From assembly GCA_900547975.1 (NCBI GenBank), contig URIX01000004.1:2719-66718 (forward strand): 64,000 bases of DNA, written 5' to 3'. Below the pieces are notes generated by a model. The model was not told the DNA's origin, ran no database searches, and worked only from the letters and a program-made list of their open reading frames with translations. Below are positions 43,048 to 57,100 of this stretch, piece by piece. The translations under genes and the position numbers were made by a program. Each line of letters starts with the position of its first letter. Positions within the stretch are counted from its first letter, which is position 1. This DNA is from an uncultured Eubacteriales bacterium (GTDB taxonomy: Bacteria > Bacillota > Clostridia > Christensenellales > CAG-917).

Positions 43048-43169
43048 AAGCGCAATATTTGGATGAAGAACAAGGAAAAGACCTTTTGCGAATCCGCCCA
43101 ACGTACAAGAACGTACGTGACGGGTGAGCAAAATGTCTTTGACGCAGTGATTCGCCAAATAGTGCGCTT
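43048..43169. repeat. Long-hairpin repeat, copy B1 (type 2)
   Basis: Outer stem AAGCGCAATATTTGG/CCAAATAGTGCGCTT. Core ATGAAGAACAAGGAAAAGACC...GTCTTTGACGCAGTGATTCG. Apical stem ACGTAC/GTACGT. Confidence 0.85.
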
Positions 43170-44520: not shown

Positions 44521-44609
44521 ACACTACACCTCTGTGCGTTCATATTTTGTGAATATTATATCATCTTTCGTCGTTATTTCAACAACATTTTACGCATTAC
44601 GCCAACAAA

Positions 44610-44995
44610 GGTTTTAAGCGCGGATATTTGAGCGACAGACAAGAAAGGCACATCTTGGATCAATCCTCAAAAAACCGCACATATTCGTAAAGCGCGATAT
44701 TTAGATGAAGAACAAGAAAGAGCCGTCCGAACGGCAACCCTAATTTACTTGTAGTAAATGAGTTGACGGACGATTGGTGATGACATAGTTATTGCCGTTT
44801 TAAGCGCGATATTTGAGTGGCAGACAAGAAAGGACATCTTGAATCAATCCTCAAAAACTGCACATATTCGTAAAGCGCGATATTTAGATGAAGAACAAGA
44901 AAGAGCCGTCCGAACGGCAACCCTAATTTACTATTCGTAAATGAGTTGACGGACGGACGGCTCTGCCGAAGTTATTCGCTAAATAGCGCGCTTTA
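44610..44995. repeat. Array of four long-hairpin repeat copies (type 2), arranged as a 186-bp tandem duplication
   Basis: The unit starting GTTTTAAGCGCG recurs at 44611 and 44797. Each unit is a degenerate copy plus a full copy. The last copy (44871-44995) has outer stem TAAAGCGCGATATTTAG/CTAAATAGCGCGCTTTA and ends 3 nt from the reductase stop. Confidence 0.9.
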
Positions 44996-44998
44996 CAC

Positions 44999-47053
44999 TT
45001 ACAGTTTCATTGCAACATCCCAAGCACCCCAAATTACAGTGCGAAGGTTGCCGACTTTTGCGCTGTCGCCGACGACGTGAACGTGTTTGCTCTCTTGCGC
45101 GACGGGCGCGGGTCTGTAACCGACGGACATAATGACGGAATCTGCGGGAATCTCGAATTCTTTGCCGTCTTTGGACGCAACTTTAACGCCGTTGTCGGTG
45201 ACCGCAACGAGTTTGGTTTCGAGATGCACGGGCACTTTGTGAAGTGCAAAGTATTCTCTCAAATAGGACGAGTTTGCAAGGCATACGCCCTTGACTGCGA
45301 TAAGGTCGTTCTTCATCTCGACGATAGTCGGGTGTTTGCCTTGAAGTTGCAATTCGTATGCGATTTCGCAACCTGTCAAGCCACCGCCAATGATGACGAC
45401 GTTGTCGCCTACTTCTTTGTTTCCGAGCAAGAAATCGCACGCTTCGACGGTCTTTTCGACGCCGGGGACGTTGAAACGTCTTGCCACTGCGCCCGTTGCC
45501 ACGACGACTTCGTCTGCGTCGAGTTTGTTTACGTCGTCAACTTTGACGCCGTACTTCACTTCAATGCCCAAATCTTTGATTTGCTTTTTGTACCACTCGA
45601 TAAGTTCTTTATCTTTCTCTTTGAAAGACGGTGCTGCCGCCGCTACGAAAATGCCGCCGAGATCGTTGGATTTCTCGTAAATGGTGACTTTATGACCACG
45701 CAACGTTGCGACTCTTGCAACTTCCATACCGCCGATACCACCGCCGACGACGGCGATCTTCTTGGATTTGGTTGCGGGAACGATCTTGTATTTCTTGGAT
45801 TGCATCGTGTGCGGATTGAGTGCGCAACGAGCCATTCCTGCGGTATCCGACAAATCCTGATCGTTTGCAACGCCGTTGTAGTGCGCCATATTGAAGCAAG
45901 CGTTATGGCAGCAAATGCAAGGCATAATGTCGTCTTCTCTGCCTTGAATGAGTTTGGTGACCCATTCGGGATCGGTGAGGAATTGACGGGCGACGCCCAT
46001 ACCGTCGATTTTGCCTTCCGCAATAGCCTTTGCGCCGACTTCGGGGGTCATACGACCTGCGCAAACGACAGGAATATCGACTGCTTTTTTGAGTTCTTCA
46101 CAATCTGCGAGGTTGCAGTTTTGCGGCATATATACCGGCGGATGCGCCCAGTACCACGCGTCGTACGTACCGTTGTCCGAGTTGAGCATATCGTAACCTG
46201 CGTCTTGAAGCATTTTGGCTGCGATTTTGCTTTCTTCCATATCGCGACCGACTTCGACGTAATCTTCACCTGGAAGCGCGCCTTGACGGAAGCCTTTGGT
46301 CTTGGATACGACGGAATATCTCAACGAAACGGGATAATCTTCGCCGCATACTCTCTTGATTTCCTTGACGATTTCGATGGGGAAACGGTATCTGTTTTCG
46401 ATTGAACCGCCGTACTCGTCGGTACGTTGGTTGGTGTATTTCATCGTGAATTGGTCGAGCAAATATCCTTCGTGGACCGCGTGGATTTCAACGCCGTCAA
46501 CACCTGCGTCTTTGCACATTTTTGCGGTTTTGCCGAACGCTTTGATAAACTCGTGAATCTCGTCGATAGTCATTGCTCTGGACGGCACTTTGTCACTCCA
46601 ACGGTTGGGATTGGGACTCGCGCTCATCGTGAGTTGATCGATATTGATAAACGGCTTTGCGATTGCACCCAAAACTTTGTTTGTGGCAATCATTTCCATA
46701 AGTCCGGTGATTGCAAAAGAACGTCCGAAACCTGCGGTGAGTTGCACAAACATCTTCGCGCCCGTCTTGTGGATTTCTTCCATAAAGGGTTTGAGGTGTT
46801 TGAAAGAACTCTTGCTTTTGTAAAGCCAGTTTCCGCCGATAACGTTTCTGATGGGTGCGATACCCGGCAAAATAAGACCGACGTTGTTCTTTGCCCTATC
46901 GAGCAAGAAGTTTGCGGCTTCTTCGTCGAAGTGATGCGGTTCCATCCAGCCGAAGATTGAAGTTCCGCCCATAGAAGTCAACACGATGCGGTTTTTTATC
47001 TCGCATTTGCCTATCTTCCAAGGGGTAAACAAACTTTGATATTTGGGATCCAT
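44999..47053 (-). CDS. Old-yellow-enzyme-type NADH:flavin oxidoreductase fused to an FAD/NAD(P) domain (2-enoate / 2,4-dienoyl-CoA reductase family)
   Basis: OYE TIM-barrel N-half, CICCHNAC iron-sulfur motif, then VVGGGIGGMEVA and IIGGGLTGCEIA Rossmann motifs. 684 aa. Confidence 0.85.
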   Translation of the reverse strand: MDPKYQSLFTPWKIGKCEIKNRIVLTSMGGTSIFGWMEPHHFDEEAANFLLDRAKNNVGLILPGIAPIRNVIGGNWLYKSKSSFKHLKPFMEEIHKTGAKMFVQLTAGFGRSFAITGLMEMIATNKVLGAIAKPFINIDQLTMSASPNPNRWSDKVPSRAMTIDEIHEFIKAFGKTAKMCKDAGVDGVEIHAVHEGYLLDQFTMKYTNQRTDEYGGSIENRYRFPIEIVKEIKRVCGEDYPVSLRYSVVSKTKGFRQGALPGEDYVEVGRDMEESKIAAKMLQDAGYDMLNSDNGTYDAWYWAHPPVYMPQNCNLADCEELKKAVDIPVVCAGRMTPEVGAKAIAEGKIDGMGVARQFLTDPEWVTKLIQGREDDIMPCICCHNACFNMAHYNGVANDQDLSDTAGMARCALNPHTMQSKKYKIVPATKSKKIAVVGGGIGGMEVARVATLRGHKVTIYEKSNDLGGIFVAAAAPSFKEKDKELIEWYKKQIKDLGIEVKYGVKVDDVNKLDADEVVVATGAVARRFNVPGVEKTVEACDFLLGNKEVGDNVVIIGGGLTGCEIAYELQLQGKHPTIVEMKNDLIAVKGVCLANSSYLREYFALHKVPVHLETKLVAVTDNGVKVASKDGKEFEIPADSVIMSVGYRPAPVAQESKHVHVVGDSAKVGNLRTVIWGAWDVAMKL

Positions 47054-47216
47054 AATTTTCTCCTTAAATATTTTAATACAAATGTATTTTATAATATATC
47101 GAAATAAAAAGCAATACCGAATTGATATTTTTTTATCAAAACGGACAAGAAATTTCGAAAAAGGCGTAGCGGCGCGGAAAAAGCGATGGATTTTGAGAAA
47201 ATATACATTTTTTTGC

Positions 47217-47245
47217 TTGCATACGACAAGAAATTATGCTATTAT
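47217..47245 (+). promoter_or_regulatory. Sigma-A promoter for tRNA-Glu
   Basis: TTGCAT, 17 nt (ending in TGC), TATTAT. Lies ~20 nt upstream of the tRNA 5' end. Confidence 0.55.
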
Positions 47246-47264
47246 CACAAAGCAATAACGATTT

Positions 47265-47340
47265 GCCCTCATGGTCAAGCGGTTCAAGACGTCGCCCTCT
47301 CACGGCGGAAACTAGGGTTCGATTCCCTATGGGGGTACCA
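47265..47340 (+). tRNA. tRNA-Glu (anticodon CTC), CCA encoded
   Basis: Hand-folded cloverleaf: acceptor GCCCTCA/TGGGGGT (G1-U72 and U5-G68 wobbles), D arm GTC-AAGCGGTTCAA-GAC, anticodon arm TCGCC-CTCTCAC-GGCGG, T arm TAGGG-TTCGATT-CCCTA. Closely resembles B. subtilis tRNA-Glu. Confidence 0.88.
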
Positions 47341-47343
47341 AAG

Positions 47344-47405
47344 AAAAGGCACATCTCAATGATGTGCTTTTTTCATTTCAAATAAATTTCGGGAATCGAA
47401 CGGGC
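47344..47405. repeat. Direct repeat R1 (~60 bp), left boundary of the nucleoside phosphorylase cassette
   Basis: CACATCT..GATGTG-TTTTTTCATTTCAAAT..ATTT..GGAATCGAACG is ~80% identical to 48368-48428. Confidence 0.8.
47349..47373 (+). terminator. Intrinsic terminator after tRNA-Glu (part of direct repeat R1)
   Basis: GCACATC/GATGTGC stem followed by TTTTTT. Confidence 0.7.
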
Positions 47406-47482
47406 GGGAAAACTGAAAATCCGATGAATTGTGCGCCATACTCTAATTTTGCACATTTCATAAATGCAAAAGAATTTTGGCG

Positions 47483-47511
47483 TTTACATCTCGTAGGATA
47501 AATGATATAAT
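47483..47511 (+). promoter_or_regulatory. Near-consensus sigma-A promoter inside the cassette
   Basis: TTTACA, 17 nt, TATAAT. Lies 70 nt upstream of the phosphorylase ATG. Confidence 0.6.
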
Positions 47512-47581
47512 GACCGAAACAATCGGATTATCCGAAAAACAGCACAAAACCTTGCATAACCTTGTACGGAAATAGGAAAAA

Positions 47582-48343
47582 ATGAGCATAATCGATTCAT
47601 TTGACAACAAATCGAAACCATTGATTGATATAAGTGCTTTTTACGGCGAAAAGAAGTTTTTTGCCGACGTTTGCATTGTGTCGTTTTCAAGGCACGTTTT
47701 GGCAATGTTTTTGGAAAAATACGAAAGCCACCCCATAGGTCACTCGGCAACGGCAAACGGACACATCGATATTTATCTGTTTGAAGTCAACGGGAAAAAA
47801 CTTTTGTTTTATATGAGTCCAATCGGCTCGTGCGTTGCCGCGTCCGTTATGTACGAAGCAAATTACGTTTCGGGCGCAACCAAGTTTATCGTATACGGTT
47901 CGTGCGGCGTTTTGGATAAGGAAAAATGTAGCGGAAAACTGATAGTCCCCTCTTATTCCTATCGCGACGAAGGGCTTTCTTATCACTATATGCCGCCGTC
48001 CGATTATATCGAAATAAAAAACTGCGACAAGATTGCAAAAATCTTTCAAAAATACAATTTGCCGTACGTTGTCGGAAGGTCGTGGACGACTGACGCCTTG
48101 TATATGGAAACGCAAGATAAAGCAAGACGAAGAAAAAGCGAAGGTTGCATTTCGGTTGAAATGGAATCATCGGGATTGCAAGCGATTTGCAATTATTACG
48201 GATTTGAATTGTATACGTTTTTCTTTTCGGGCGATTTGTTGAACGACGATTCTTGGGAACAAGCGAATCTCGGCAACGAAGCGGAACACGATATTCAAAA
48301 AGCAACGTTTGACGTCGCATTGAAAATTGCAATGGAAATCTGA
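47582..48343 (+). CDS. Nucleoside phosphorylase family protein (PNP/UDP-1 superfamily)
   Basis: GSCG...RDEGLSYHY...SVEMESSGL pattern, resembling uridine/purine nucleoside phosphorylases. Confidence 0.78.
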   Translation: MSIIDSFDNKSKPLIDISAFYGEKKFFADVCIVSFSRHVLAMFLEKYESHPIGHSATANGHIDIYLFEVNGKKLLFYMSPIGSCVAASVMYEANYVSGATKFIVYGSCGVLDKEKCSGKLIVPSYSYRDEGLSYHYMPPSDYIEIKNCDKIAKIFQKYNLPYVVGRSWTTDALYMETQDKARRRKSEGCISVEMESSGLQAICNYYGFELYTFFFSGDLLNDDSWEQANLGNEAEHDIQKATFDVALKIAMEI

Positions 48344-48367
48344 CTTTGAACGTAATATCAAAGTAAA

Positions 48368-48428
48368 TAAAAACACATCTTTTAGATGTGTTTTTTCATT
48401 TCAAATCGATTTAACGGAATCGAACGAA
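48368..48428. repeat. Direct repeat R2, right boundary of the cassette. Contains a hairpin that can terminate in both directions.
   Basis: See R1. Hairpin is ACACATCT/AGATGTGT with a T-run on the plus strand and an A-run upstream. Confidence 0.8.
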
Positions 48429-48474
48429 CGTTTTGACCCAAACGAAAACGCTGTTTTATTAGAATCCGAAGCGA

Positions 48475-48552
48475 TTAAAACCACAAGCCGCCGAAGAATC
48501 CCAACATACCGAACAATCCGAGTATCGCAAGCATAAGCGCCATAAAATGCAT
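48475..48552 (-). CDS. Candidate 25-aa hydrophobic peptide
   Basis: MHFMALMLAILGLFGMLGFFGGLWF. SD GAGAGGTGG lies ~6 nt before the ATG. The R2 hairpin lies ~50 nt downstream on the same strand. Below the track cutoff. Confidence 0.3.
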   Translation of the reverse strand: MHFMALMLAILGLFGMLGFFGGLWF

Positions 48553-48818
48553 AGTCCACCTCTCTTTTACAATATATGAAACGATTATTGCGTGTTAGCA
48601 CCGTTTCTTTCGACACCATAATATTCAAAGAAAATTTGCGATATTCGTTATCGGACATTAAAGCGTTATCGACATAAAGAAAAGCGGACTGCAAATCGCA
48701 TATCCGTTTTTCTTATAGAATAGGGGAAAATTATGACTGTTTTACGTTTTTAATTGATTGCGCGTTTGTGTGCACTTGTAGCCAAAATTGCACAATTTTG
48801 AATATCTAACGTGGTGTT

Positions 48819-50762
48819 TTACTTTTGTTTGATAAGCGTTTTATAGCCTTTGTTGACGCGCATTGCGTTGAGAATCGCAACGATTGCCACTCCGACGTCG
48901 CCGCAAACCGCAATCCACATCGTCGCACTGCCGAGAACGCCCGTCGCGCTCAACGCCATAATGAGAAGTTTTACGGCAAGAGAGCCGACGATGTTTTCGT
49001 ACACCACTCTCATCGTCTTTTTAGAAATACGTTTTGCAGTGGATATACCCGTCAAATCGTCTTGCATAAGCACTACGTCGCTCGCTTCGATTGCCGCGTC
49101 GCTGCCCACGCCGCCCATAGCAATGCCTATATCCGAACGCATAAGCACGGGTGCGTCGTTTATGCCGTCGCCGACAAAGCACAGCACGTCGCCTTTCTTC
49201 TTCTCTGCAAGCATTTGCTCGACGTTTTCCACTTTATTTTGCGGCAGCAAGGACGCTTTGTATGCCGAAAGTCCGATTTTTCCTGCCACGTCGGAAGCGA
49301 TAGCCTCGTTGTCACCCGTAAGCATAACCGTTTTGCAACCCATTTTGTTGAGTTCGCCGACGGCGGATACGGATTCGTCCTTGATTTCGTCGCTTATGAG
49401 AAGCGAACCGACAAATTCTTTGTTGTGAGCAACGTAAACGACAGTGCCTATTCCCTTGTGCGCAACATAAGGAATATCGTAGGATTTCATAAGTTTTTCG
49501 TTGCCGCAATAGATGCTGTCGTCGTCTTTTGTCGCAAGCACACCGAAGCCCGCTATGTTCGTAAGCGTATAACCGCCCTCTATTTCACCGTTATAACAAG
49601 CCACGATAGAGCGTGCAATCGGGTGATTCGAGTCGTTTTCCGCAATGGCGGCAAGACGAAGAATTTCGTCTTTTCTGTCGGCAGGCGCAACGGTTACGGC
49701 AAAGTTGCCTTTGGTGAGCGTTCCCGTCTTGTCGAACACGAATACGTTTGCCTTGCTCATAAGTTCGAGATAGTTGCTACCCTTGATAAGAATACCGAAT
49801 CTCGAAGCCGCGCCAATACCCGCAAAGAAGGAAAGAGGCACGGAAACGACGAGCGCGCAAGGACAGGAAACAACCAAAAAACTCAAACCTCTGTATATCC
49901 AAGTGTACCAGTCTCTTGTGACCGCACCGCCTATAACCATAAGTAAAACGGCAGCCACGACCACGCTCGGCGTGTAGTATTTTGCGAATCTCGATATAAA
50001 GTTTTCCGCTTTGGATTTCTTGCTCGAAGCGTTCTCAACGAGGTCAAGTATTTTAGAAACCGTTGAATCATAGAATACTTTTGTCACTTCAACTTCGATT
50101 TGCGACGTCAAATTGACGCAACCGCTGATAATCTCTTCACCTTCCGAAAGTTCTCTGGGAAGGGACTCGCCCGTCAGCGCTTTGGTGTCGAGAGTGGTTG
50201 AACCGCTTGTCACGATACCGTCGAGAGGCACTTTTTCACCGGGGTAAACCACGATGACGTCGCCAACCTTGACTTCGCTCGGGTCGACTTGCTCGACAAT
50301 GCCGTCTTCCCTCTTTACGTTGGCGTAATCGGGTCTGATGTCCATAAGTGCGGAAATAGATTTTCTCGATTTGCCCGTCGCGTAACTCTGGAAGAACTCG
50401 CCGACCTGATAGAACAAAAGCACGGCGCAACCTTCGTCGAAGCCCTCTTGTTCTCTGCCCGTCACGCTCGTGTAAATGCCGAGCGCAAACGCGCCGAGAG
50501 AAGCAACGCACATAAGCAAGTTTTCGTCAAGCACTTGACCGTGTACGATTCCTCTCGCCGCCTTGAACAGCACGTCGTAGCCGATGACCATATACACGGC
50601 AAAATAGAGGAAGAACGGCAAAAGCCAACCGTACTGTCCGCCGACCGCCTTTGCAAGTCCGAGCGTTTTGTCAACGATGAGTATAACGAAGAATAAGCAC
50701 AGCGCAACGCTTATGCGAATGAGGTTCTTCTTTTCTTTTCTAGATAGTTTGATTTTTTTCAT
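48819..50762 (-). CDS. cadA: Heavy-metal (Cd/Zn/Co-type) P1B-type ATPase lacking its own N-terminal metal-binding domain
   Basis: CPCALVVSVP (CPC), DKTGTLT, TGDN and VGDGINDAP motifs. Starts directly with the membrane domain. No SD upstream of the ATG. Confidence 0.9.
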   Translation of the reverse strand: MKKIKLSRKEKKNLIRISVALCLFFVILIVDKTLGLAKAVGGQYGWLLPFFLYFAVYMVIGYDVLFKAARGIVHGQVLDENLLMCVASLGAFALGIYTSVTGREQEGFDEGCAVLLFYQVGEFFQSYATGKSRKSISALMDIRPDYANVKREDGIVEQVDPSEVKVGDVIVVYPGEKVPLDGIVTSGSTTLDTKALTGESLPRELSEGEEIISGCVNLTSQIEVEVTKVFYDSTVSKILDLVENASSKKSKAENFISRFAKYYTPSVVVAAVLLMVIGGAVTRDWYTWIYRGLSFLVVSCPCALVVSVPLSFFAGIGAASRFGILIKGSNYLELMSKANVFVFDKTGTLTKGNFAVTVAPADRKDEILRLAAIAENDSNHPIARSIVACYNGEIEGGYTLTNIAGFGVLATKDDDSIYCGNEKLMKSYDIPYVAHKGIGTVVYVAHNKEFVGSLLISDEIKDESVSAVGELNKMGCKTVMLTGDNEAIASDVAGKIGLSAYKASLLPQNKVENVEQMLAEKKKGDVLCFVGDGINDAPVLMRSDIGIAMGGVGSDAAIEASDVVLMQDDLTGISTAKRISKKTMRVVYENIVGSLAVKLLIMALSATGVLGSATMWIAVCGDVGVAIVAILNAMRVNKGYKTLIKQK

Positions 50763-50845
50763 AATATGTTTTGTCTATAATTAAGATTGAGATTAAGATT
50801 TGTTCGCTCACCCATAAAATGAAATATTTGGATGAAGAACTTGGT

Positions 50846-50970
50846 CACAATCGTTCTTTGAGATGAAGAACAAGGAAGACGCTTCTGCACGGCAATTCCA
50901 ATTTACTTGGCGTAAATGAGTTGTCGTGCAGTGGCGTCTGACGCAGTTATTCGCTCAAAGAACGATTGTG
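50846..50970. repeat. Long-hairpin repeat, copy D (type 2)
   Basis: Outer stem CACAATCGTTCTTTGAG/CTCAAAGAACGATTGTG is perfect over 17 bp. Its 3' arm is the last 13 coding nt plus the stop of the HMA gene. Core ATGAAGAACAAGGAAGACGC...GCGTCTGACGCAGTTATTCG. Confidence 0.9.
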
Positions 50971-51173
50971 CAGTCGGGTTCGATTTTACGGCAGGTCTTC
51001 ACAACCCTCTTCATAATATCGTCAAAGTTTGCGTCATCGGCTTCGATTGTGAGACGTTGAGCCATAAAACTGACGGACGCGTTTTGTACGCCGTCAAGTT
51101 TTTGAATGGCACATTCCATTTTTGCGGCGCAATTTGCACAATCGAGATCTTCGAGTTTGTAAACTTTTTTCAT
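50955..51173 (-). CDS. Stand-alone heavy-metal-associated (HMA) domain protein
   Basis: YKLEDLDCANCAAKMECAIQKLDGV is the CxxC ferredoxin-like HMA fold usually found fused at the N-terminus of CadA-type ATPases. Confidence 0.85.
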   Translation of the reverse strand: MKKVYKLEDLDCANCAAKMECAIQKLDGVQNASVSFMAQRLTIEADDANFDDIMKRVVKTCRKIEPDCTIVL

Positions 51174-51253
51174 TTTCGTTTCTCCTTAACCATTTATATA
51201 CTTCCCTTTCGAGACAAATCCTATATCGGTTTGTTTGTTGAACAGTTGGATTG

Positions 51254-51269
51254 TTGAACAACTGTTCAA
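51254..51269. promoter_or_regulatory. Candidate ArsR/CadC operator upstream of the HMA gene
   Basis: TTGAACA-AC-TGTTCAA with 7-bp perfect arms. An extra half-site TTGAACA lies at 51238. Confidence 0.45.
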
Positions 51270-51324
51270 ATATTGCTTCTAAAAAATCAGGGGTTTGCAC
51301 CCTGCGTTTTTAGACGGCGAGGAA

Positions 51325-51654
51325 TTATTTTTCCTCGTTGACGTGAGTCAGACCGCACTGCATTATGAGCGTAACGTGGTCGTCGTCGAGAGAATATCTG
51401 ACTTCCTTACCTTCTTTTGTGCCTTTGACGAGTTTGATTGCGCGAAGCACGCGAAGTTGGTGAGATACGGCGGAAGTGGTCATACCGAGTTTGTCGGCGA
51501 TGTCCCCTACGTTCATATCGCTTGCTTGCAAGCAACTCAAAATTTTAACGCGGGTCGGGTCGCCAAGAGCCTTGAACAATTCTGCAAGCGCAGATACCAC
51601 GTCGTCGGCAGGAAGCGTTGAATTTTGGGTGTTGTCTTTGATTTCTACTGTCAT
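51325..51654 (-). CDS. ArsR/SmtB-family metalloregulator (CadC-like)
   Basis: LFKALGDPTRVKILSCL...VGDIADKLGMTTSAVSHQLRVLR winged HTH. Start at ATG 51654 with SD GGAGAGAAAG. Confidence 0.85.
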   Translation of the reverse strand: MTVEIKDNTQNSTLPADDVVSALAELFKALGDPTRVKILSCLQASDMNVGDIADKLGMTTSAVSHQLRVLRAIKLVKGTKEGKEVRYSLDDDHVTLIMQCGLTHVNEEK

Positions 51655-51669
51655 CTTTCTCTCCAACAC

Positions 51670-51692
51670 TTGAACTGTTATTCAAATGTTCA
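51670..51692. promoter_or_regulatory. Candidate ArsR/CadC operator upstream of the regulator gene
   Basis: TTGAACTGTTATTCAA plus TGTTCA, the same half-sites as at 51254. Lies immediately upstream of the regulator's RBS. Confidence 0.45.
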
Positions 51693-51870
51693 TTTATATA
51701 TTATTCCCGATTAAGTCGTTTGTCAACGAATATTTGCAAAAATATTAATTATTTTTCGGATACTTTTTCCGCTTTTCGGCACTGCGGCAGATTTTCGGCG
51801 CGCAATATCAATCAAAGTGTAAACTATCGAACAAAATCCGATTTCACAGAAAAACTTTTCAGATTCGATA

Positions 51871-51899
51871 TTGATTTTAATTTATATTTAATGTACAAT
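51871..51899 (+). promoter_or_regulatory. Sigma-A promoter for the giant metallophosphoesterase gene
   Basis: TTGATT, 17 nt, TACAAT. Lies 49 nt upstream of the ATG; SD AAGGAGG. Confidence 0.55.
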
Positions 51900-51947
51900 C
51901 GTATAGAAAGAATTATTTGCGCGCGTATGCGTGCATAAGGAGGAAAT

Positions 51948-54900
51948 ATGAGCAACAAAATGCAAAGACATCTGCCTTTGGTGTTCGTCGTCGCTCTCGC
52001 AATCGTTCTTGCGAGCGTTATGACGTTCTCGATTGCAGGCATTGCAAACGCCGACAGTCAAAAGACGCCGACCAACTCTCTTATGATCGGTCAATTCAGC
52101 GACATTCACTACTTCCCCGTCGACGATTGCTATCAAGACATCCAAAGTCCCGACTACAAAACGAGCGACTTCTACAATTCTATGACGGGCGACACCAAAC
52201 TCGTTATGGAAAGCGGTATGATCCTCAAACAACAAATCGAGCAATACATTGCCGACGCGAAGAAAGGAAAAGCACCGCAATACGTTTTCGCTTCGGGCGA
52301 CCTTAGCAAAAACGGCGAGGTCACCGCTCTCGTTGACGTTGCAAACGCATTGCGTTATATGCAAAACGAGATAAGAAAGATATCGGGTTATGAGAACTTC
52401 CAAGTTTTCGCAACGCCGGGCAACCACGACCTTTACAACACGTCGGGCGCGCTCTACTCGAAAACCGACGGTTCTAAACGCGTTTCCGACGCGTTGACGA
52501 CGATGCAATTCGCTCTCGTCTTTGCAGGTTTGGGCTATCCGAACGCAAACCTTGACGGAAGCGACGGCGCAATCAACCTCACAGAGTATTTGCCCGCAGA
52601 GTACTGGTACGGCGAGTACACAACCGATTATATTCCGTCCAAAAACGCGGATACGCTTGAAATCCACTACTACAACGAGCACATCGAAGCGGTCAACAAC
52701 ATGAACGCTTCCAAAACAACCGCCGACAAACTCAACGAATACTATCAAATCGGCGACGTAAACAACGCTCTTTCCTTGTCGGCGGAAATCAAAGTTGCCG
52801 ACTATAAGGATTATGCGCTTATGGTTATCGACGCTCACGATAGAGAGTCGGCGGAAGTCGGCGCATACGTCAGAGTGAACGAAGCGGAATATAACGTTAT
52901 CCGCAACAACAAGCAAGCAAACGGCGAAAATTACACTTTCTACGGCGCAACCGAAGAAGGCGCGGTCGATACCTCGACGACAATCGATGCCGAAGCCGCT
53001 TTCGCTGCAGGTAAAACCGTGTTCCGTTCGACAGGTCTCGACCACCTCTGCGGCGGCAGACTCACCGAAGGCGTGCTCGATTGGATGGAAAAATTCTGTG
53101 ACGCAAGAAACGCTGCCTCTAATCTCGGTGAAGCCACCGTCATCGCTTGCTTCCACCAGAACGCGCTTCCGCACTGGGAAATGGAAGACGAAATCCTCAA
53201 AGACTTCACCATCTACAACTGGGAAAACACCGCAAAACGCTTGCTCGATATGGGCACTCGCTACGTCTTCACGGGACATATGCACGTTTGCGACGCTATG
53301 ACCTACACCGACGTAGAGGGCAGAACGCTCTACGATTTCCAAACGGGTTCTTGCGTAAGTTACTATTCACCCAGAAGATACACCACACTCGAAAGATATA
53401 ACTTTGACGGAAAACTCGGCGAAGCCTGCATTTCTTCCGTATTCTGCCTCGACGACATAAGCGCAACGCCGTTTAAGGAAGTGCCGAGCCACAACGTGTT
53501 CACCGCACCGGCATTCAACGACGAAACTTTCCAAACCGCATACAAGGCGTACAAACTCGACCCCACCGAAGCAAAATGGCAGGCTGTCGTTGCAACCAAC
53601 CCCGACTATCTCGCATATATGATTAACTACGAGAATATGAACGCGCTCGGTTACAACGATTACATCAACGAACAAATCTATTCGATTCTTGTTGAAAGAG
53701 TTGTCGATCATTTCCTCAATCAAAGTACAATAGACGGACTCGTAGGCTCCGTTATGAATATGGTTGGCGGCGACAACACCGTACTCGGAATAGTCCGCAG
53801 CACCTTGTTTGCCGACTTCAAAAAGAGCGAAGACCCCGATTTGTACAAAGAATACGGCAATTTGGACGCCGATGAAAAGGCCGACGCCCTCAACGGACTT
53901 GTCAAATACATTCTCGACACCGTTCTCGAAGGCGTGACGTACGTCCATAACGACACGAATTACAATTCCGCACTCGACCTCGTAAATGCGGTCGTCAACG
54001 AAGTGCTTTCTTGGAAATTCGGCGACGACAGCATCGTATCCGCAGTCAATCCGAGAAATAGCGGCAAGATGCTCATTACCGATATCGCTGCATTCATTAT
54101 GACCGCTCATACGATGGGTATGGAAATTTCTCTCGACGAGACCGCAGAATCCATCAAGGCGATTTTCGGCGAGGAACAAAAAGTCGAAGACGGCAAGGAT
54201 TACCTTTTCAAGCACCCCTACAACCCCACCTATCGTTTGCGTATGGTAGCGGCGGTAAACGATATGCACGAGCAACTCATCAGCGGCAAATTCGTTGAAA
54301 ATTTGCTCACGACGTTGCTGAATCCCATCTTTACCGAAGACGGTTCGTTGCTCAAAACCATTCTCAATCATAAGTTCGATTTCGGCGACGCGGTTGACAA
54401 AGGCTATATGACAGAAGCGGCGTTTGAACACCTCAAAAAAGGTTTGGGCTCGAAACTTCCGTCCGTTTTGAATATGACGGCAGTCAAAAACGTTCTTGCA
54501 AAACTCGGCGTTGAAATTTCCCTTCCCGCAGACTACTCTATCGACGCGGAAAACTTCGTTCTCGTCAACGTTATCAACGATTTGCTTCCCGCAATCAAGA
54601 CTCTCGTTGCGAAACTTCTCGGCTTCTCGCTCGAAGGTCCGGACGTTATATCCATCGTTCAAAATTTCCTCGACAGTTATCTCGTCGACAGTTTCTACAA
54701 GGGACTCGGCGGCATTGCCGACGACATCGTGATTACGTTTGCAACCGACGTCTATCCCGATATGGACGACTTTGCTACCCCCCAAAAGCCTTCATACTAT
54801 CAACCCAACAAAGCGTATGAAAAGGACGGCGTGCGCCTCTCTTACCTCAGCACTCTCAACGAAGGCTCTAAGGTCGGCGCAGAATTCAACGCGGCAACGC

Positions 54901-56516
54901 AAGACAACGGCAGAGTTCCTTCTCGCGTGACTGCAAACTTCGATACTGCCAACTCTACAACTTCCTACACGATTAAGTTCTACACCGAAGAAAACGTGTA
55001 CGGAACGTTCAGACTCTTTGACGAAAACGGCAACAAGATAGGCGATGTAAGCACTTCTAAATCCGCCGCGCTCAAAGCGTATGCGACAAACAAGACCGAT
55101 TATCTCGACACGACGGCTTACAAAGAGTTCTCGAACGGAGTAAAAGCGACGGTATTCACTCAAACCAAACCGCAATACATTCCGCTCATCGACCTCGGAC
55201 TTCTCTGCCTCACTCACGGTCAAATCGTCGACAAGGACAACAACGACAAGCCGTACGTCTACGGTGACCGTGACAAAGCGGTTGCAAACAGCGTTATTTA
55301 CTGGAACGTCCACACCGTCACCATCAACGGTCTCGAAGCAGGCAAAACCTACTACTACGACATTCTCGGCAACTACGAAACCGACGGCGAACCCCTCGAA
55401 TTCTCTTTGGTCGAATACATCAAGACTCAAGGCTACGAAGGCAACGCCCTCACGTTCACGACGGCTGTCGGCAGAGACGTAGACGCATTCGAATTCCTCA
55501 CTATCGCGGACATTCAGGGTATGATTCAGAGTATGTACGACAACAGCCACGAGGCAGTCGACGCACTTCTTAAAGACGAAAGAGTCAACGCCTTCGATTT
55601 CATTCTCAACGCAGGCGATATGTGCGACAACGGCAAGAACTTCAATCAATGGGGTATGGCTCTCGACACCTATCAAGACCTCACGCTCAACACTTCCGTA
55701 TTCTTCACGTCGGGCAACCACGAGAACAATACGGGCGCAATGGGCAGATACTTCAACTACACCGAAAAGGTCGGCGAAGAAATTAAGGCAATAAGCGGCG
55801 AATACTATTCCTTCGATTACGCAAACGCACACTTCACCGTTCTCAACACCAACGACGCGTCCACCGACGGACTCGGCGAGGCTCAACTCGAATGGCTCAA
55901 AAACGACCTTGCGAACACAGACGCTAAATGGAAATTCGTGCTTATGCACAAGAGTTTGTACAGCGCAGGTTCGCACGCGTTCGACGGCGAAGTCAAGGCT
56001 ATGAGAGGGCAACTCACCACTCTCTTTGCAGAGCAAGGCGTAAACGTCGTGTTCGGCGGTCACGACCACTCCTACACCGCCACCTATCTCGTTGACAAAG
56101 ACGGCAAGGTCGTTGACAAAACGAGCAAAGACGGCGTGCGTTACACCGGCGACGGCGTTCTCTACATCACGCTCGGCACACTCGGCACGAAGTTCTACAA
56201 CTATAGAGAGAACGATATGACCACCGACAAATTCAACAAGGACGACAGCATACTTCACACGCTCGATTCTCAAACGTTCGGCAAGGTCAAAGTCGAAGGC
56301 GACACGATCACTTTCACGGGTTACTACTTCAACAGAGCAACCGGCAAAATCGATCAAATCGGCAACAGCACCGTTCTCGGCACAACGCCTATAAAGGACA
56401 ACAAACTTACGGTTATCCTTCTTTCCACCCTCATTCCGGGCGTGGCAGTGATAGGCGTAGGCACAGGACTTGGCGTCTACTTCGCAAAGAAGAAAAAAGC
56501 AAAAATCAGTGCTTAA
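51948..56516 (+). CDS. 1522-aa secreted, C-terminally membrane-anchored protein with two metallophosphoesterase domains (the second is purple-acid-phosphatase-like)
   Basis: Signal peptide MSNKMQRHLPLVFVVALAIVLASVMTFSIAGIANA. Domain 1 has SDIHYF, SGDLSKNG, PGNHD and TGHMH. Domain 2 is preceded by an FN3-like WNVHTVTINGLEAGKTYYYDI and has NAGDMCDNG, SGNHEN, VLMHKSLY and GGHDHSY. The C-terminal TM is ILLSTLIPGVAVIGVGTGLGVYF followed by KKKKAK. No LPXTG motif. Confidence 0.85.
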   Translation: MSNKMQRHLPLVFVVALAIVLASVMTFSIAGIANADSQKTPTNSLMIGQFSDIHYFPVDDCYQDIQSPDYKTSDFYNSMTGDTKLVMESGMILKQQIEQYIADAKKGKAPQYVFASGDLSKNGEVTALVDVANALRYMQNEIRKISGYENFQVFATPGNHDLYNTSGALYSKTDGSKRVSDALTTMQFALVFAGLGYPNANLDGSDGAINLTEYLPAEYWYGEYTTDYIPSKNADTLEIHYYNEHIEAVNNMNASKTTADKLNEYYQIGDVNNALSLSAEIKVADYKDYALMVIDAHDRESAEVGAYVRVNEAEYNVIRNNKQANGENYTFYGATEEGAVDTSTTIDAEAAFAAGKTVFRSTGLDHLCGGRLTEGVLDWMEKFCDARNAASNLGEATVIACFHQNALPHWEMEDEILKDFTIYNWENTAKRLLDMGTRYVFTGHMHVCDAMTYTDVEGRTLYDFQTGSCVSYYSPRRYTTLERYNFDGKLGEACISSVFCLDDISATPFKEVPSHNVFTAPAFNDETFQTAYKAYKLDPTEAKWQAVVATNPDYLAYMINYENMNALGYNDYINEQIYSILVERVVDHFLNQSTIDGLVGSVMNMVGGDNTVLGIVRSTLFADFKKSEDPDLYKEYGNLDADEKADALNGLVKYILDTVLEGVTYVHNDTNYNSALDLVNAVVNEVLSWKFGDDSIVSAVNPRNSGKMLITDIAAFIMTAHTMGMEISLDETAESIKAIFGEEQKVEDGKDYLFKHPYNPTYRLRMVAAVNDMHEQLISGKFVENLLTTLLNPIFTEDGSLLKTILNHKFDFGDAVDKGYMTEAAFEHLKKGLGSKLPSVLNMTAVKNVLAKLGVEISLPADYSIDAENFVLVNVINDLLPAIKTLVAKLLGFSLEGPDVISIVQNFLDSYLVDSFYKGLGGIADDIVITFATDVYPDMDDFATPQKPSYYQPNKAYEKDGVRLSYLSTLNEGSKVGAEFNAATQDNGRVPSRVTANFDTANSTTSYTIKFYTEENVYGTFRLFDENGNKIGDVSTSKSAALKAYATNKTDYLDTTAYKEFSNGVKATVFTQTKPQYIPLIDLGLLCLTHGQIVDKDNNDKPYVYGDRDKAVANSVIYWNVHTVTINGLEAGKTYYYDILGNYETDGEPLEFSLVEYIKTQGYEGNALTFTTAVGRDVDAFEFLTIADIQGMIQSMYDNSHEAVDALLKDERVNAFDFILNAGDMCDNGKNFNQWGMALDTYQDLTLNTSVFFTSGNHENNTGAMGRYFNYTEKVGEEIKAISGEYYSFDYANAHFTVLNTNDASTDGLGEAQLEWLKNDLANTDAKWKFVLMHKSLYSAGSHAFDGEVKAMRGQLTTLFAEQGVNVVFGGHDHSYTATYLVDKDGKVVDKTSKDGVRYTGDGVLYITLGTLGTKFYNYRENDMTTDKFNKDDSILHTLDSQTFGKVKVEGDTITFTGYYFNRATGKIDQIGNSTVLGTTPIKDNKLTVILLSTLIPGVAVIGVGTGLGVYFAKKKKAKISA

Positions 56517-56525
56517 CTAAAAAAT

Positions 56526-56555
56526 GCGCTCACCGAACGGTGAGCGCTTTTTTTT
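56526..56555 (+). terminator. Intrinsic terminator after the giant gene
   Basis: GCGCTCACCG/CGGTGAGCGC stem followed by TTTTTTTT. Confidence 0.8.
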
Positions 56556-56611
56556 AATTAATAATGAATAATTAATAATTAATAATTTTGGGTGGGCTCT
56601 GCCCACACCCG
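56556..56611. repeat. (AATTAAT)x4.5 plus GC-rich hairpin element, copy 2 (inverted relative to copy 1)
   Basis: AATTAATAATGAATAATTAATAATTAATAATTTT followed by GGGTGGGCTCTGCCCACACCC. Its reverse complement aligns with 32864-32910. Confidence 0.7.
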
Positions 56612-56626
56612 ATTAAATATCTGCAA

Positions 56627-56755
56627 GATTCGATGCGCTAAATCGATGCATAACGCGAAAGAGGCACTCGCTCGGCAACCCTAATTTACTAATCGTAAAT
56701 GAGTTGTCGAGCGAGTGCCTCTGACAAAGTCAGGCGCGATTTAGCACATCGAATC
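56627..56755. repeat. Long-hairpin repeat, copy E (type 1)
   Basis: Outer stem GATTCGATGCGCTAAATCG/CGATTTAGCACATCGAATC is 19 bp with one mismatch (C opposing A on the plus strand). Core ATGCATAACGCGAAAGAGGCACTCG...CGAGTGCCTCTGACAAAGTCAGGCG. The 3' arm encodes the last 4 codons and the stop of the HIT gene. Confidence 0.9.
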
Positions 56756-57082
56756 ACTAAGTTTTCGTCCGCCAAGTATATGAATATGCAAATGTCCGAC
56801 CGACTGGCAACCGTCCTCGCCCTTGTTGGATACGAGACGGAAACCGTTTTGAAGTCCCAACTCGTCGGTGAGCGTAGAGAGTTTTTTGAGGCATTTTGCG
56901 AGGGTTTGTGATTGAGAGTCCGTCATCTCGATTATATTTGCGTAATGCTCTTTGGGGATAAGCAAAAGATGCACGGGGGCTTGCGGATTCAAGTCCTTTA
57001 TGATAATCATATCGTCGTCTTCGTAGACTTTCGTTGACGGAATATCGCCTTTTACGATTTTGCAAAAAATGCAGTTGTCCAT
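56741..57082 (-). CDS. hit: Histidine triad (HIT) family nucleotide hydrolase
   Basis: CIFCKIVKGDIPS...VGHLHIHILGG. Confidence 0.9.
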   Translation of the reverse strand: MDNCIFCKIVKGDIPSTKVYEDDDMIIIKDLNPQAPVHLLLIPKEHYANIIEMTDSQSQTLAKCLKKLSTLTDELGLQNGFRLVSNKGEDGCQSVGHLHIHILGGRKLSDSMC

Positions 57083-57100
57083 ATCGATTTCTTCCTTTTA

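Follow-up and report, generated by a model that had tools for sequence, protein, structure and literature searches.

How can both arms of a long hairpin be perfectly complementary when one of them consists of the last codons of a protein-coding gene? This question is raised by a repeat copy, here called copy D, at the 3' end of a heavy-metal-associated (HMA) gene in the window, i.e., the whole stretch of 64,000 nucleotides that was analysed. The origin and upkeep of long perfect hairpins are a long-standing puzzle. One proposed answer, resting mainly on ancestral states reconstructed in eukaryotes, is template switching. This process generates perfect hairpins and preserves their pairing (Loytynoja & Goldman 2017, PMC5453318; Monttinen & Loytynoja 2022, PMC8794818; 2023, PMC10710096), homogenises inverted-repeat arms and inverts spacers in yeast (PMC8604942), and extends the arms of quasi-palindromes (PMC3820800). 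The repeat family analysed here is a natural bacterial system in which hairpin copying can be read directly at many independent loci, with ancestral, intermediate and derived states coexisting in public metagenomes.

Distribution and fold of the hairpin repeat

Copy D belongs to an undescribed family of rod-like hairpin repeats of ~125 nt on the chromosomes of an uncultured clade of Christensenellales-like gut Clostridia. The window contains seven copies, and related Christensenellales-like genomes assembled from metagenomes yielded about 130; the core pattern occurs six times in the window against zero expected. A covariance model built from six sequences, copy B1 among them, retrieved about 127 full-length copies from 100 related loci; despite its use in model building, B1 was not listed when the window was searched with the model. 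The window copies are 4–6 kb apart between the NFACT, DUF711, M29 peptidase, OYE, P-type ATPase and HIT genes, which are syntenic in relatives. The copies upstream of the HMA locus in window coordinates are the following:

39204–39330, + strand: copy A; the TAA stop codon of the DUF711 gene (39327–39329) lies in the right arm, with one more coding base paired
43048–43169, + strand: copy B1, the inner of two tandem copies, with a shorter stem of 15 bp
43170–43295, + strand: copy B2; the TGA stop codon of the M29 peptidase gene (43294–43296) is outermost in the right arm, its left mirror being TTGAGAG
44612–44996, + strand: locus C, a 183-nt tandem duplication
44612–44687 and 44802–44870, + strand: truncated left parts of another sub-family at locus C
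44688–44802, + strand: copy C1, 3'-truncated
44870–44996, + strand: copy C2, complete

Each copy comprises an asymmetric conserved core of ~88 nt and a closing outer stem of about 19 bp. Strong covariation was revealed in all stems, with 88.9% of 5,983 pair cells being Watson–Crick across 126 distinct copies; among the seven window copies, 33 of 47 pairs were compensated and covariation was not limited to the outer stem. A T.G mismatch at columns 23/124 is present in 117 of 126 copies, a G.A mismatch is also strongly conserved, and paired AAC/GTT triplets at columns 28–30 / 117–119 are more than 90% conserved (126 copies). Conservation of the outer stem is confined to its inner ~12 nt, while the outer 4–17 nt track the local gene. 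In 92 of 129 copies, the better fold is that of the + strand.

Massive covariation in every stem, conserved loops and the better-folding + strand are what a functional RNA would offer, the stems of which would stay paired because selection favours compensatory point mutations that arise independently, without any templated copying. Outside the three conserved mismatch positions, G.T combinations (131) are in only modest excess over A.C combinations (92), unlike in a selected strand-specific RNA, and the evidence from the HMA locus and from locus L096, given below, is also unfavourable; we regard this explanation as scarcely tenable.

Searching the window against Rfam 15 at gathering thresholds yielded only a tRNA, and with E-values up to 10 the repeat copies in the region 38900–57000 drew chance-level matches only. 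The conserved loops were not accepted as a ribozyme, K-turn or C/D box because, judged from sequence alone, the motifs do not face each other in the fold. A small ORF on the + strand (ATG AAG AAC ..., 12–18 codons) was likewise rejected, as B2 has no ATG and stem covariation alters the 'codons' freely. For a second repeat family, a group II intron or other known RNA was discarded after no Rfam match was obtained with E-values up to 1.

Many canonical copies terminate in ...CGCGGTTTT(T)A, and many end in AAAAC(N)GCG...CGC(N)GTTTT, resembling a two-way terminator. In the gene-sense RNA, as read from the DNA letters, CUUUCUUGUUCUUCAU follows the core hairpin, and no U tract follows the outer stem in copies D and E. 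The U-rich tract after the core hairpin suggests a candidate role as terminator or 3' stabiliser, for which there are no transcript data. A simple promoter/terminator scan is unsuited to hairpins of 125 nt.

Origin of the two arms at the HMA gene

The HMA locus comprises the following features:

50846–50970, + strand: copy D, on the strand reading GATGAAGAAC...GTTATTCGC (covariance-model match of 124.2 bits, model positions 1–125)
50846–50862, + strand: far arm, CACAATCGTTCTTTGAG, a perfect inverted copy of the gene-side 17 nt, derived
50863–50953, + strand: conserved asymmetric core, with ATGAAGAAC-AAGGAA, stem P2, the apical hairpin, CTGACGCAGTTATTCGC and the conserved columns
50877–50898 / 50918–50939, + strand: stem P2, within the core
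50892–50923, + strand: apical hairpin, carrying GGCAAYYCYAATTTAC...GTAAATGAGTTG
50954–50970, + strand: gene-side arm (template), CTCAAAGAACGATTGTG, the reverse complement of the last five HMA codons and the stop
50815–50840, + strand: fossil of an older element, consisting of a far arm and first core bases (TAAAATGAAATATTTGGATGAAGAAC)
50841–50845, + strand: filler TTGGT, 5 nt, between the fossil and copy D
50955–51173, − strand: HMA gene, 72 aa, ending in ...EPDCTIVL* (Pfam PF00403, 8.9e-12)
48819–50762, − strand: P-type ATPase gene, downstream of HMA (PF00122, PF00702)

Copy D folds as a single rod with −71.6 kcal/mol (z = −11.3) on the + strand and −56.3 kcal/mol on the − strand, its 17-nt arms being 100% complementary and 91 nt apart. 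The earlier note had read the right arm as encoding the end of the HMA protein and the left arm as its reverse-complement copy, and the reading of the right arm was borne out by the − strand ORF, in which this arm corresponds to the last base of TGC followed by ACA ATC GTT CTT TGA. The TGA stop codon is new and was supplied by the canonical TTGAG of the element.

The C-terminus EPDC(T/R)I(V/I/L)(L/R)* was found in 36 of 36 HMA orthologues examined, including element-free ones; its retention in element-free homologues implies that the gene-side arm of copy D is ancestral host sequence. Across relatives, the locus is empty, canonical or D-type. In the close relatives L114 and L121/L003, a canonical element is located outside the HMA ORF and the CACAATCG... 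arm is missing. The fossil at 50815–50840 can be aligned to the canonical far arm of L114, L121 and L003. As the far arm of copy D is missing from these relatives and their own far arm persists as a fossil in the D-type state, the inverted copy is derived. The distal flank is identical in L114 (canonical) and L120 (D-type), and relative to L114 the D-type locus has lost 13 nt on the gene side and gained 31 nt on the far side. The comparison of relatives proposed in the earlier note for deciding which arm is ancestral supports its central claim. The informative HMA states were obtained from a metagenome scan with the HMA protein and those of the HIT locus from contig look-ups; a flank-matched search for empty sites over the first 113 loci gave mostly tandem-versus-single comparisons.

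These states bear on two explanations that do without copying. The first, that the arms are wholly element-borne, differ by sub-family and are merely entered by host ORFs, covers two options of the earlier note. ORFs do end inside a canonical arm in the L041/L035/L028 group (...RTK*) and in L085, and a 133-aa HIT variant (P0008) reads through into the element, so that reading into termini holds for a minority. It fails for D and E, and orthologues with another element or none retain the residues that the arms encode at these two loci as well as at EFEWVD*, KW* and FF*. Sub-families do exist among the cores; they cannot explain arms that follow the codons of the local gene. For D and E this explanation is, as far as the comparison of element-free and canonical-state orthologues reaches, already refuted, and in general we give it next to no credence.

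The second is that the element inserts in the loop of a pre-existing hairpin, e.g., a terminator starting at the stop codon, so that both arms are host sequence and nothing is copied. The closest element-free HMA relatives (L126–L133) indeed have a small hairpin, TAAATGC...GCAaTTTTA, right at the stop codon, which resembles the canonical outer pairs TAAAATGC/GCATTTTA at this locus, and the terminator-like ends of canonical copies described above would also fit. Against it, relatives with a canonical element lack the far arms of the D and E types, which are therefore new, and the stems are of one length, unlike those of terminators. Ordinary terminators in the window lie 4–27 nt past the stop codons, on which account terminator targeting was also rejected as the cause of the adjacency to stop codons. 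At locus L018, the stop codon lies outside any hairpin, yet a 12-nt far-arm remnant is kept; this suggests that 'empty' sites may be secondary losses. Insertion into pre-existing hairpins is therefore judged very improbable.

Two HMA haplotypes, IVL/IVL and IIL/IIL, show three differences in both arms, whereas their cores differ at only two positions; L027 is mixed. Three substitutions mirrored together between such similar cores, and new arms of 8–17 nt arising as blocks with insertions and fossils, speak against independent compensatory substitutions in a functional RNA. The core of copy D, in turn, is strongly unlike the canonical core of its closest relative L114, from which it follows that a new core reached the locus and that snap-back copying alone is insufficient.

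Mirrored codons at the HIT gene and other loci

A second case of recruited codons is found at the HIT gene:

56626–56755, + strand: copy E; the right arm contains the last HIT codons GAT TCG ATG TGC and the TAA stop codon

The left arm, GATTCGATGCGC, mirrors these codons with one mismatch. The C-terminus KLSD(S/T)MC* is conserved in 14 of 14 close homologues read, in the two more distant orthologues L003 and L113 and in 40 population loci. The difference between TCG in the window and ACG in L113 is mirrored in the far arm. A synonymous TCT/TCG polymorphism of recent origin in the coding arm of E has no mirror, which implies that arm correction is occasional and not continuous. Copy E is compatible with a deletion between GCTAA repeats of a canonical arm, followed by rewriting of the outer 8–9 nt of the far arm. 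At this locus, the repeat copy number varies between strains with an identical protein. At both D and E, one arm has changed as a block into the reverse complement of nearby sequence, a state absent in the ancestor; the IVL/IIL haplotypes and the palindrome of L096 are further cases of such block changes.

The locus-specific outer stems quoted in the earlier note were all found, i.e., the arms of D and the distal pairs CTAAACT/AGTTTAG of A (39204–39210 / 39324–39330), GAGAGACT/AGTCTCTC of B2 (43170–43177 / 43288–43295) and GATTCGAT/ATCGAATC of E (56626–56633 / 56748–56755). Its figure of 7–17 variable distal bp needs to be lowered: the variable part is locus-specific as claimed, usually comprises the outer 4–8 bp and reaches 12–17 bp only in a minority such as copy D. 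In L011, the orthologue of A with a different core, the last codon is AAT (AAC in the window) and the far arm has the matching T (C in the window). At one locus, TAA, TGA and TAG stop codons are each mirrored in the far arm.

The right arm faces a gene 3' end in 76 of 104 copies, while the left side has no such relation, and in 62 of those 76 copies the stop codon is within −23 to +6 nt of the element end. At least two coding nucleotides are mirrored in the far arm of 22 of 35 non-redundant gene-adjacent copies (P = 2e-18 versus chance extension). The GTTATTCGC-side arm is whatever adjoins the core, first element sequence, next the stop codon of the gene and beyond that 0–17 nt of its last codons, and the GATGAAGAAC-side arm is the reverse complement of this stretch. 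Non-coding repeats thus recruit protein-coding 3' ends and even supply new stop codons, which matters for the annotation of gene ends and for 3'-end regulation in common human gut bacteria.

Stem length and absence of direct duplications

In copies with the stop codon of the neighbouring gene inside the outer stem, this stem measures 18.7 ± 0.9 bp (range 17–20), independent of the stop position T over T = 1–17 (slope −0.01), and the number of coding nucleotides in the stem equals 16.8 − T (r = −0.98). The stem was 17–20 bp long in 66 of the 71 non-redundant copies of a wider set. Newly made arms measure 17 nt (D), 19 nt (E), 20 nt (L010) and 19 nt (L058), with no pairing beyond; such a precise stem length was unexpected.

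When 122 non-redundant copies were examined for direct repeats at their stem boundaries, the repeat lengths corresponded to the shuffled expectation (0, 1, 2 and 3 nt in 70, 39, 11 and 2 copies versus 83, 28, 8 and 2 expected), revealing no direct target duplication. This agrees with the view of the earlier note that the flank duplication is inverted rather than direct. A palindromic TA duplication was rejected, since it explains 2 bp only and cannot give mirrored TGG TGA or CTT TGA.

The sharp stem boundary, irrespective of stem composition, speaks for an enzymatic explanation. On this view, a dedicated transposase, nuclease or recombinase would recognise the core and either place the element at a gene end or renew it there, copying a fixed length of ~19 nt, possibly by foldback priming that runs as far as a nick or staggered cut made at a set distance. 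The unpaired core nucleotides and the mismatches (T.G in 117 of 126 copies, G.A, AAC/GTT) are strongly conserved, as in a protein-binding site; different sub-family cores are found at exactly the same site in close relatives (HIT, HMA, EFEWVD and A loci), and the orientation is strand-specific. On the other side, an all-against-all comparison of 2,068 ORF fragments from 113 eight-kb neighbourhoods, which does not cover whole genomes, gave no recurrent transposase-like ORF family, and BLAST and pattern searches of plasmid, phage and viral collections gave no match to the element. The fossils, the filler, a 13-nt far-arm duplication and the 43-bp palindromisation of L096 resemble replication errors, not a clean enzymatic reaction. 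We hold such an enzyme to be unlikely without dismissing it. The same doubt applies to a new self-renewing or mobile element, in which an unidentified core-recognising protein and measured foldback-primed synthesis of ~19 nt beside stop codons would yield an inverted target duplication. If true, the inverted target-site duplication and molecular ruler would amount to transposition-like chemistry, and a fixed length made by an enzyme to new integration chemistry.

Direction of copying

GC skew was negative in element orientation at 68 of 81 loci (p = 4e-10). This relation of orientation to GC skew implies that the replication fork reaches the templating arm first. Of the 32 copies with a right-hand gene in the opposite direction, 78% likewise had negative GC skew; as GC skew correlates with gene orientation, replication and transcription can only partly be separated. 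Twelve copies have truncated left-part fossils on the far side, and two have them on the gene side. The copying direction is clear and tied to the direction of replication.

Two loci bear larger rearrangements. In L096, the left half is the reverse complement of the right half, forming a perfect 43-bp palindrome in which the conserved internal loops are erased; this counts against a functional RNA. In L031, one of about 103 copies, the apical domain is inverted. Both are single metagenome assemblies, and assembly error is possible.

Proposed origin of the stems

The hairpins of this family arise by copying and not by point mutation. Template switching, i.e., snap-back copying during replication at the hairpin, is the best explanation and in our estimation the probable one, inferred from end states. 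Of the options in the earlier note, inverted copying by template switching or foldback synthesis fits best; whether it takes place at insertion or afterwards is not settled.

On this template-switch model, the fork would meet the gene-side arm first. The nascent leading strand of the core would fold on itself, and the nascent 3' end would snap back and copy the just-made arm in an intrastrand template switch, before synthesis resumes on the parental template. Such a process would also homogenise the arms after substitutions and would sometimes turn longer stretches of the element into palindromes or invert them. Deletions that the hairpin stimulates between short repeats (stop-like arm triplets and the stop codon of the gene) may erode the spacer and the gene-side arm, ending where coding sequence halts them; erosion up to the coding sequence would explain why the stop codon lies within the stem. 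The course of events in the D lineage itself is shown by the states of the relatives: an earlier canonical element was located just past the HMA stop codon, and its core and gene-side arm were replaced or deleted, so that a new core came to abut the last sense codon. A new 17-nt far arm arose by inverted copying of the gene end, and the old far arm was displaced outward and persists as the fossil.

No template switch was observed directly, and the mechanism is inferred from the end states alone. Pure template switching gives no obvious reason to stop at 17–20 bp, and since the fixed stem length is left unexplained, there is room for an enzyme-driven, ruler-based mechanism. The TTGGT filler (5 nt) of D and a duplicated GATGAAGAAC also need extra steps.

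Comparison with known systems

The bacterial MITE-like palindromic repeats include ERIC/IRU (~127 bp), Correia/NEMIS, RUP, BOX and the terminator-like SPRITE of S. pneumoniae (PMC10969869, PMC2229807). Common to these and the hairpin repeat are a size of about 100–150 nt, a non-coding, intergenic and multi-copy nature, long imperfect hairpins, clustering or nesting, frequent location at gene 3' ends and possible effects on termination or mRNA stability. No sequence similarity to the ERIC, Correia, RUP, BOX and SPRITE families was found in Rfam and BLAST searches. Of the classical MITE criteria, the hairpin repeat meets shortness, lack of coding capacity, multiple copies and presence/absence polymorphism between relatives; it does not meet direct target-site duplication or conserved terminal inverted repeats shared with a parent insertion sequence. 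It differs in that its outer ends follow the neighbouring gene, it makes no direct target-site duplication, and no parent insertion sequence was found for it.

REP/REPIN/BIME elements are likewise extragenic palindromes, often in tandem, with compensatory stem evolution and stop codons often near, and they are presumably processed in single-stranded hairpin form, with a preference for one strand. REP sequences are tagged by a GTAG/CGTC head (PMC3733652), which is missing from the hairpin repeat consensus (126 copies), and the repeat is one asymmetric hairpin of 125 nt, whereas REPINs are inverted doublets of 20–40-nt REPs. No RAYT-like gene was found in the sampled 8-kb neighbourhoods, i.e., no recurrent ORF family at 113 loci.

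Integron attC sites, such as the ~125-nt Vibrio cholerae repeats, share the size, an imperfect hairpin recognised by structure, a start at or overlap with the stop codon of the upstream ORF, a fixed orientation, paired conserved AAC/GTT triplets and the placement of the better-folding strand on the leading-strand template. The latter is also reported for chromosomal integrons. In attC, the R''/R' boxes (RYYYAAC / GTTRRRY) are at the hairpin base, a criterion that the hairpin repeat does not meet: its AAC/GTT is not the outer limit but about 20 bp inside a further perfect stem, and the GTTATTC of the main sub-family does not match GTTRRRY. Variation in attC is greatest at the apex, which in the hairpin repeat is where conservation is highest, and attC sites form cassette arrays, whereas the repeat copies are 4–6 kb apart between syntenic housekeeping genes.

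With template-switch or quasi-palindrome mutations, the hairpin repeat has in common that an arm is rewritten as reverse complement in one multi-nucleotide event, that arm identity is extended into the flank, that arms are homogenised and that a spacer is occasionally inverted (L031). It differs from these mutations in being a dispersed, conserved bacterial repeat family at which the process recurs, in copying directionally from the gene side to the far side in step with the fork, and in yielding one stem length of ~19 bp while recruiting protein-coding 3' ends. Recurrence at a repeat family, directionality, the ~19-bp stem and the recruitment of coding ends are outside the published template-switch descriptions cited here.

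Distribution of the Hairpin Repeat

Seven copies of the element, an approximately 125-nt rod-like hairpin whose asymmetric core is closed by an outer stem, share a single orientation and fall inside 18 kb (39204-56755) of the 64 kb of the window.

Copies of the hairpin repeat in the window, each in the same orientation as the other six
39204-39330, copy A, at the DUF711 gene end
43048-43169, copy B1
43170-43295, copy B2
44688-44802, copy C1, truncated
44870-44996, copy C2, complete
50846-50970 (+), copy D, at the 3' end of the HMA gene
56626-56755, copy E, at the HIT gene end

A degenerate pattern for the apical part matched six times in the window, with zero expected; the reference-genome collection has at least 113 stretches with this pattern, all of them from uncultured Clostridia (record titles including Christensenella sp. 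UBA6880, UBA7588, UBA767 and UBA7571, and uncultured Clostridiales); one of these records is a complete MAG of 1.65 Mb. Using a covariance model trained on six window copies, about 127 distinct full-length copies were identified in 100 of the pattern-bearing loci, and a covariance-model search of 1-39000 and 57000-64000 of the window revealed no hairpin copy. Rfam gave no match to the element even at E up to 10, and it was not found in the plasmid, phage and viral collections searched. Every relative compared was a metagenome assembly.

C1 and C2 occupy the two units of a 183-nt tandem duplication (44612-44996), each unit comprising a truncated left part of another sub-family (AAGCGCGRATATTTGAGYGRCAGACAAGAAAGG...) and then a hairpin copy. 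The left basal motif of that sub-family, GAGCGTCAG, resembles an old inverted copy of the CTGACGC on the right.

An unrelated non-coding repeat of about 320 nt, absent from the window, was present in 70 of the fetched loci (e.g., L196:1210-1535, L017:3322-3648, L015:3621-3921, L092:2543-2852, L059:262-583 and L057:7277-7445). It contains ...ACTTATTCAAGGCGYACTTATWAACGGAATGTGC...GACGGAACACGAGCCGCAAGGCGGCGAG...GAGCTTGACG.ATAGTACAAG... and had no Rfam match even at E up to 1. Where both repeats were close together (about eight loci checked), it lay on the far (left) side of the hairpin element in a fixed relative orientation; in L122, L123, L205-L208, L011, L006 and L013, it interrupts hairpin elements.

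Further features of the window
14370-14449, 16-nt unit ATCGAACATCATTGCA in about five tandem copies
42740-42930 (+), weak 6S RNA-like match (29 bits, gathering score 46.4; E 0.015) within the 650-nt gap immediately left of B1
47265-47337 (+), tRNA gene (58.5 bits), flanked by the OYE-like oxidoreductase gene and the next ORF
56520-56600, two-way intrinsic terminator of textbook form, GCGCTCACC-GAAC-GGTGAGCGC, bearing A and T runs, with an AT-rich repeat of AATAATTAAT type next to it; both separate the 1522-aa metallophosphatase gene from copy E, and several sub-threshold Rfam matches to the terminator (Prevotella-2, Thr leader) looked spurious

Fold and Conserved Core

The whole element forms one rod-like hairpin. 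As RNA, D was predicted to fold at -71.6 kcal/mol (z -11.3) when read from the + strand and at -56.3 when read from the minus strand; A and E were alike. The + strand (GATGAAGAAC strand) gave the better fold in 92 of 129 copies (p = 1e-6). Watson-Crick pairs made up 88.9% of pair cells across 126 distinct copies, with covariation in every stem; among the window copies alone, compensated double changes were seen at 33 of 47 pairs. Conserved positions are largely unpaired or mismatched, namely GATGAAGAAC..G.AAAG on the left and CTGAC..AGTTATTCGC on the right, with a T.G pair kept in 117 of 126 copies and a G.A pair also conserved; the apical GGCAACCCTAATTTAC-loop-GTAAATGAGTTG is conserved as well. 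Outside the conserved mismatches, there was only a modest excess of G.T (131) over A.C (92).

Many canonical copies end AAAAC(N)GCG...CGC(N)GTTTT like two-way terminators, and the gene-sense RNA would carry the core hairpin followed by CUUUCUUGUUCUUCAU. D, which sits within the HMA-ATPase operon, has lost the terminal T run. A simple terminator scan is not suited to hairpins this long, so it gives no verdict on the element.

An Outer Stem of Fixed Length at Gene Ends

With gene positions expressed in the element's own orientation, 76 of 104 copies had an opposite-strand gene with its 3' end towards the right arm, and in 62 of these 76 the stop codon lay -23 to +6 nt from the element end, mostly within the stem; the left side of the 104 copies had no comparable relation to gene ends. 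TAA, TGA and TAG stops all occur in right arms, each mirrored in the left arm, and pairing reaches 1-17 nt into the coding sequence beyond the stop.

Counted outward from the G of GATG, the outer stem measured 18.7 ± 0.9 bp (range 17-20) in 35 non-redundant gene-adjacent copies, while the position of the stop codon within it varied from 1 to 17 (slope of stem length vs stop position, -0.01). Since stem length is independent of stop position, the number of coding nucleotides in the stem equals 16.8 minus stop position (r = -0.98). At least two coding nucleotides were mirrored in 22 of the 35 copies (P = 2e-18 vs chance extension). A stem of 17-20 bp was found in 66 of 71 copies of a wider non-redundant set, extra pairing past the model end amounting to 0-3 bp only. 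This trade-off is displayed directly by the orthologous loci L053 (TGGTGAGCGCGCTATTTGA) and L071 (GTAAAAATGCACTATTTTG): both stems have 19 nt, including 4 nt and 1 nt, respectively, of a conserved Trp codon region.

The Gene-Side Arm of Copy D Is Ancestral

The arms of D, 50846-50862 (CACAATCGTTCTTTGAG) and 50954-50970 (CTCAAAGAACGATTGTG), are 17 nt each, perfectly complementary and separated by 91 nt, which include an imperfect inner stem (50877-50898/50918-50939). The right arm overlaps the 3' end of the 72-aa HMA ORF (50955-51173, minus strand; C-terminus ...KIEPDCTIVL*, asterisk denoting the stop). The earlier note had placed the arms at these positions and equated the right one with the HMA gene's end; both statements were borne out, and the distal pairs it quoted for A, B2 and E were all found in the window.

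Scanning metagenomes with the HMA protein yielded 80 orthologous loci (60-99% identity), 36 of which were read. The C-terminus EPDC(T/R)I(V/I/L)(L/R)* was present in 36 of 36, distant element-free loci included, and thus matches the gene-proximal arm to uninterrupted orthologue ends, a comparison the earlier note had called for. We conclude that the gene-side arm of D is ancestral coding sequence.

States of the HMA locus
Empty: L126-L133 and more distant loci
Canonical: L114 (99% protein identity), L121 and L003, L124, L125
D-type: window, L027, L115-L120

In canonical HMA elements, the TAA stop is the exact starting point; TAAAATGCACTATTTGG/CCAAATATTGCATTTTA is one example of their arms. The distal flank is identical between L114 (canonical) and L120 (D-type). 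Relative to L114, D-type loci lack 13 nt of the gene-side arm, the ORF ending CTT TGA G with TGA supplied by the element's canonical TTGAG, and have gained 31 nt on the far side, consisting of the gene end copied in inverted orientation (17 nt), 5 nt of filler and GATGAAGAAC in duplicate. The older far arm persists in the window at 50815-50840. As the D-type core belongs to another sub-family than that of L114, a new core also came to the locus. The derived far arm of D is hence an inverted duplication of the flank, as had been proposed, and no direct target-site duplication was found at the element.

D-type was present in at least nine independent assemblies. Both arms carry the Ile-Val-Leu version in one haplotype (window, L116-118, L120) and the Ile-Ile-Leu version in another (L115, L119); the two haplotypes have three arm differences, all mirrored, and only two core differences. 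L027 combines the Ile-Ile-Leu coding arm with the Ile-Val-Leu far arm (three mismatches) and may be either an intermediate or a recombinant.

Other Gene Ends

The HIT C-terminus GGRKLSD(S/T)MC* was shared by the window and two orthologues (77-81% identity) and was unchanged in 14 of 14 close homologues read and in 40 population loci. Such conservation of the encoded residues refutes the explanation that the arms are purely element-borne. It also stands against host ORFs simply reading into element termini as a general explanation, an option left open in the earlier note, which does hold for a minority of copies with an ORF entering canonical arm sequence (L041/L035/L028, L085 and P0008, a 133-aa HIT variant whose stop codon is lost and whose frame extends 20 codons into the element).

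HIT clades at 92-96% protein identity have TGC TAA and then immediately a canonical element, of several sub-families, and copy number differs among strains. The window's clade has TGC TAA ATCG joined to the core, which would be the expected product of a deletion between GCTAA repeats at the gene end and within the canonical arm GCGCTAAATCG; its far arm ends ...CATCGAATC, the mirror of GAT TCG ATG. L113 has ACG in place of TCG, matched in the far arm. A TCT/TCG polymorphism within the E clade has no mirrored far-arm change, and four assemblies (L214/L216/L218/L219, around 950-990) carry a 13-nt tandem duplication (CGATTTAGCGCAT) of the far arm of E; arm correction is therefore not continuous.

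At locus A, the gene's final codon reads AAC in the window and AAT in L011, and the far-arm tip is C and T accordingly, the L011 element being otherwise of a different sub-family. The EFEWVD* locus holds five different elements with TAA, TGA or TAG stops, and in all five the far arm is a mirror of that element's stop together with 2-4 nt from the conserved GAT codon. In L018, the site downstream of the ...FF* gene has lost its element; CAAAATATTGCG, a 12-nt match to the canonical far arm, remains just ahead of an ordinary terminator, suggesting deletion as a route of element loss and a secondary origin for some empty sites.

The empty L126 group has a small hairpin where the stop codon lies, a hint that the element may insert into pre-existing hairpins; this explanation fails for D and E and leaves the uniform stem length unaccounted for.

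Orientation and Possible Mechanism

In L096:5243-5367, the basal 43 bp are perfectly palindromic: the left half, along with its internal loops, has been replaced by the reverse complement of the right half, which implies the GTTATTCGC side to be the template. In L031:4057-4181, the apical domain is inverted relative to the base. Both are single observations from one metagenome assembly each, and assembly error is possible. Truncated left parts (arm and core start) adjoin 12 copies on the far side and 2 on the gene side. One such fossil is the L010-type far arm still present in L001, which shares with L010 an inverted copy of coding CAAACAG. Tandem arrays, e.g., L036, contain several successive far arms, all mirroring one gene end. 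Ordinary compensatory substitution, by which stems would be kept paired, cannot explain these data, as it is unable to yield block changes, fossils or the L096 palindrome.

GC skew, read in element orientation, was negative at 68 of 81 loci (p = 4e-10) and throughout the window. Of the 32 copies with an oppositely directed gene on the right, 78% likewise had negative skew; all copies were co-oriented in 21 of 22 multi-copy loci. Element orientation thus tracks strand composition. Given that the leading strand of Firmicutes is usually G-rich, this skew implies that the gene-side, templating arm is the first part of the element to meet the fork.

Template switching at inverted repeats is described to cause block rewriting of arms, extension of arm identity into flanks, arm homogenisation and spacer inversion (PMC5453318, PMC8794818, PMC10710096, PMC8604942, PMC3820800). 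Because the features of the hairpin repeat match these, we propose snap-back copying, inferred and not demonstrated: the nascent leading strand of the core would fold, snap back and copy the just-synthesised arm, and hairpin-stimulated deletions between stop-like triplets would then move the core up to the ORF. Left unexplained by this proposal are the exact 17-20-bp new arms, the new cores at the same site and the filler bases of D. An enzyme making the arms by a ruler-type mechanism is kept alive by the sharp stem length, against which stands that no candidate protein was found in the sampled element neighbourhoods.

Comparison with Known Families

No curated RNA family matches the element. 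Unlike classical MITEs, it has neither a direct duplication nor conserved termini; it lacks the GTAG/CGTC head of REP/REPIN sequences, and it departs from attC sites in having its boxes away from the termini and no cassette array. Its behaviour is that of a MITE or REP-type extragenic palindrome, with stems evolving like those of template-switch hairpins. We rate it as an undescribed repeat family whose closing stem is fixed in length and templated on the neighbouring gene's end.
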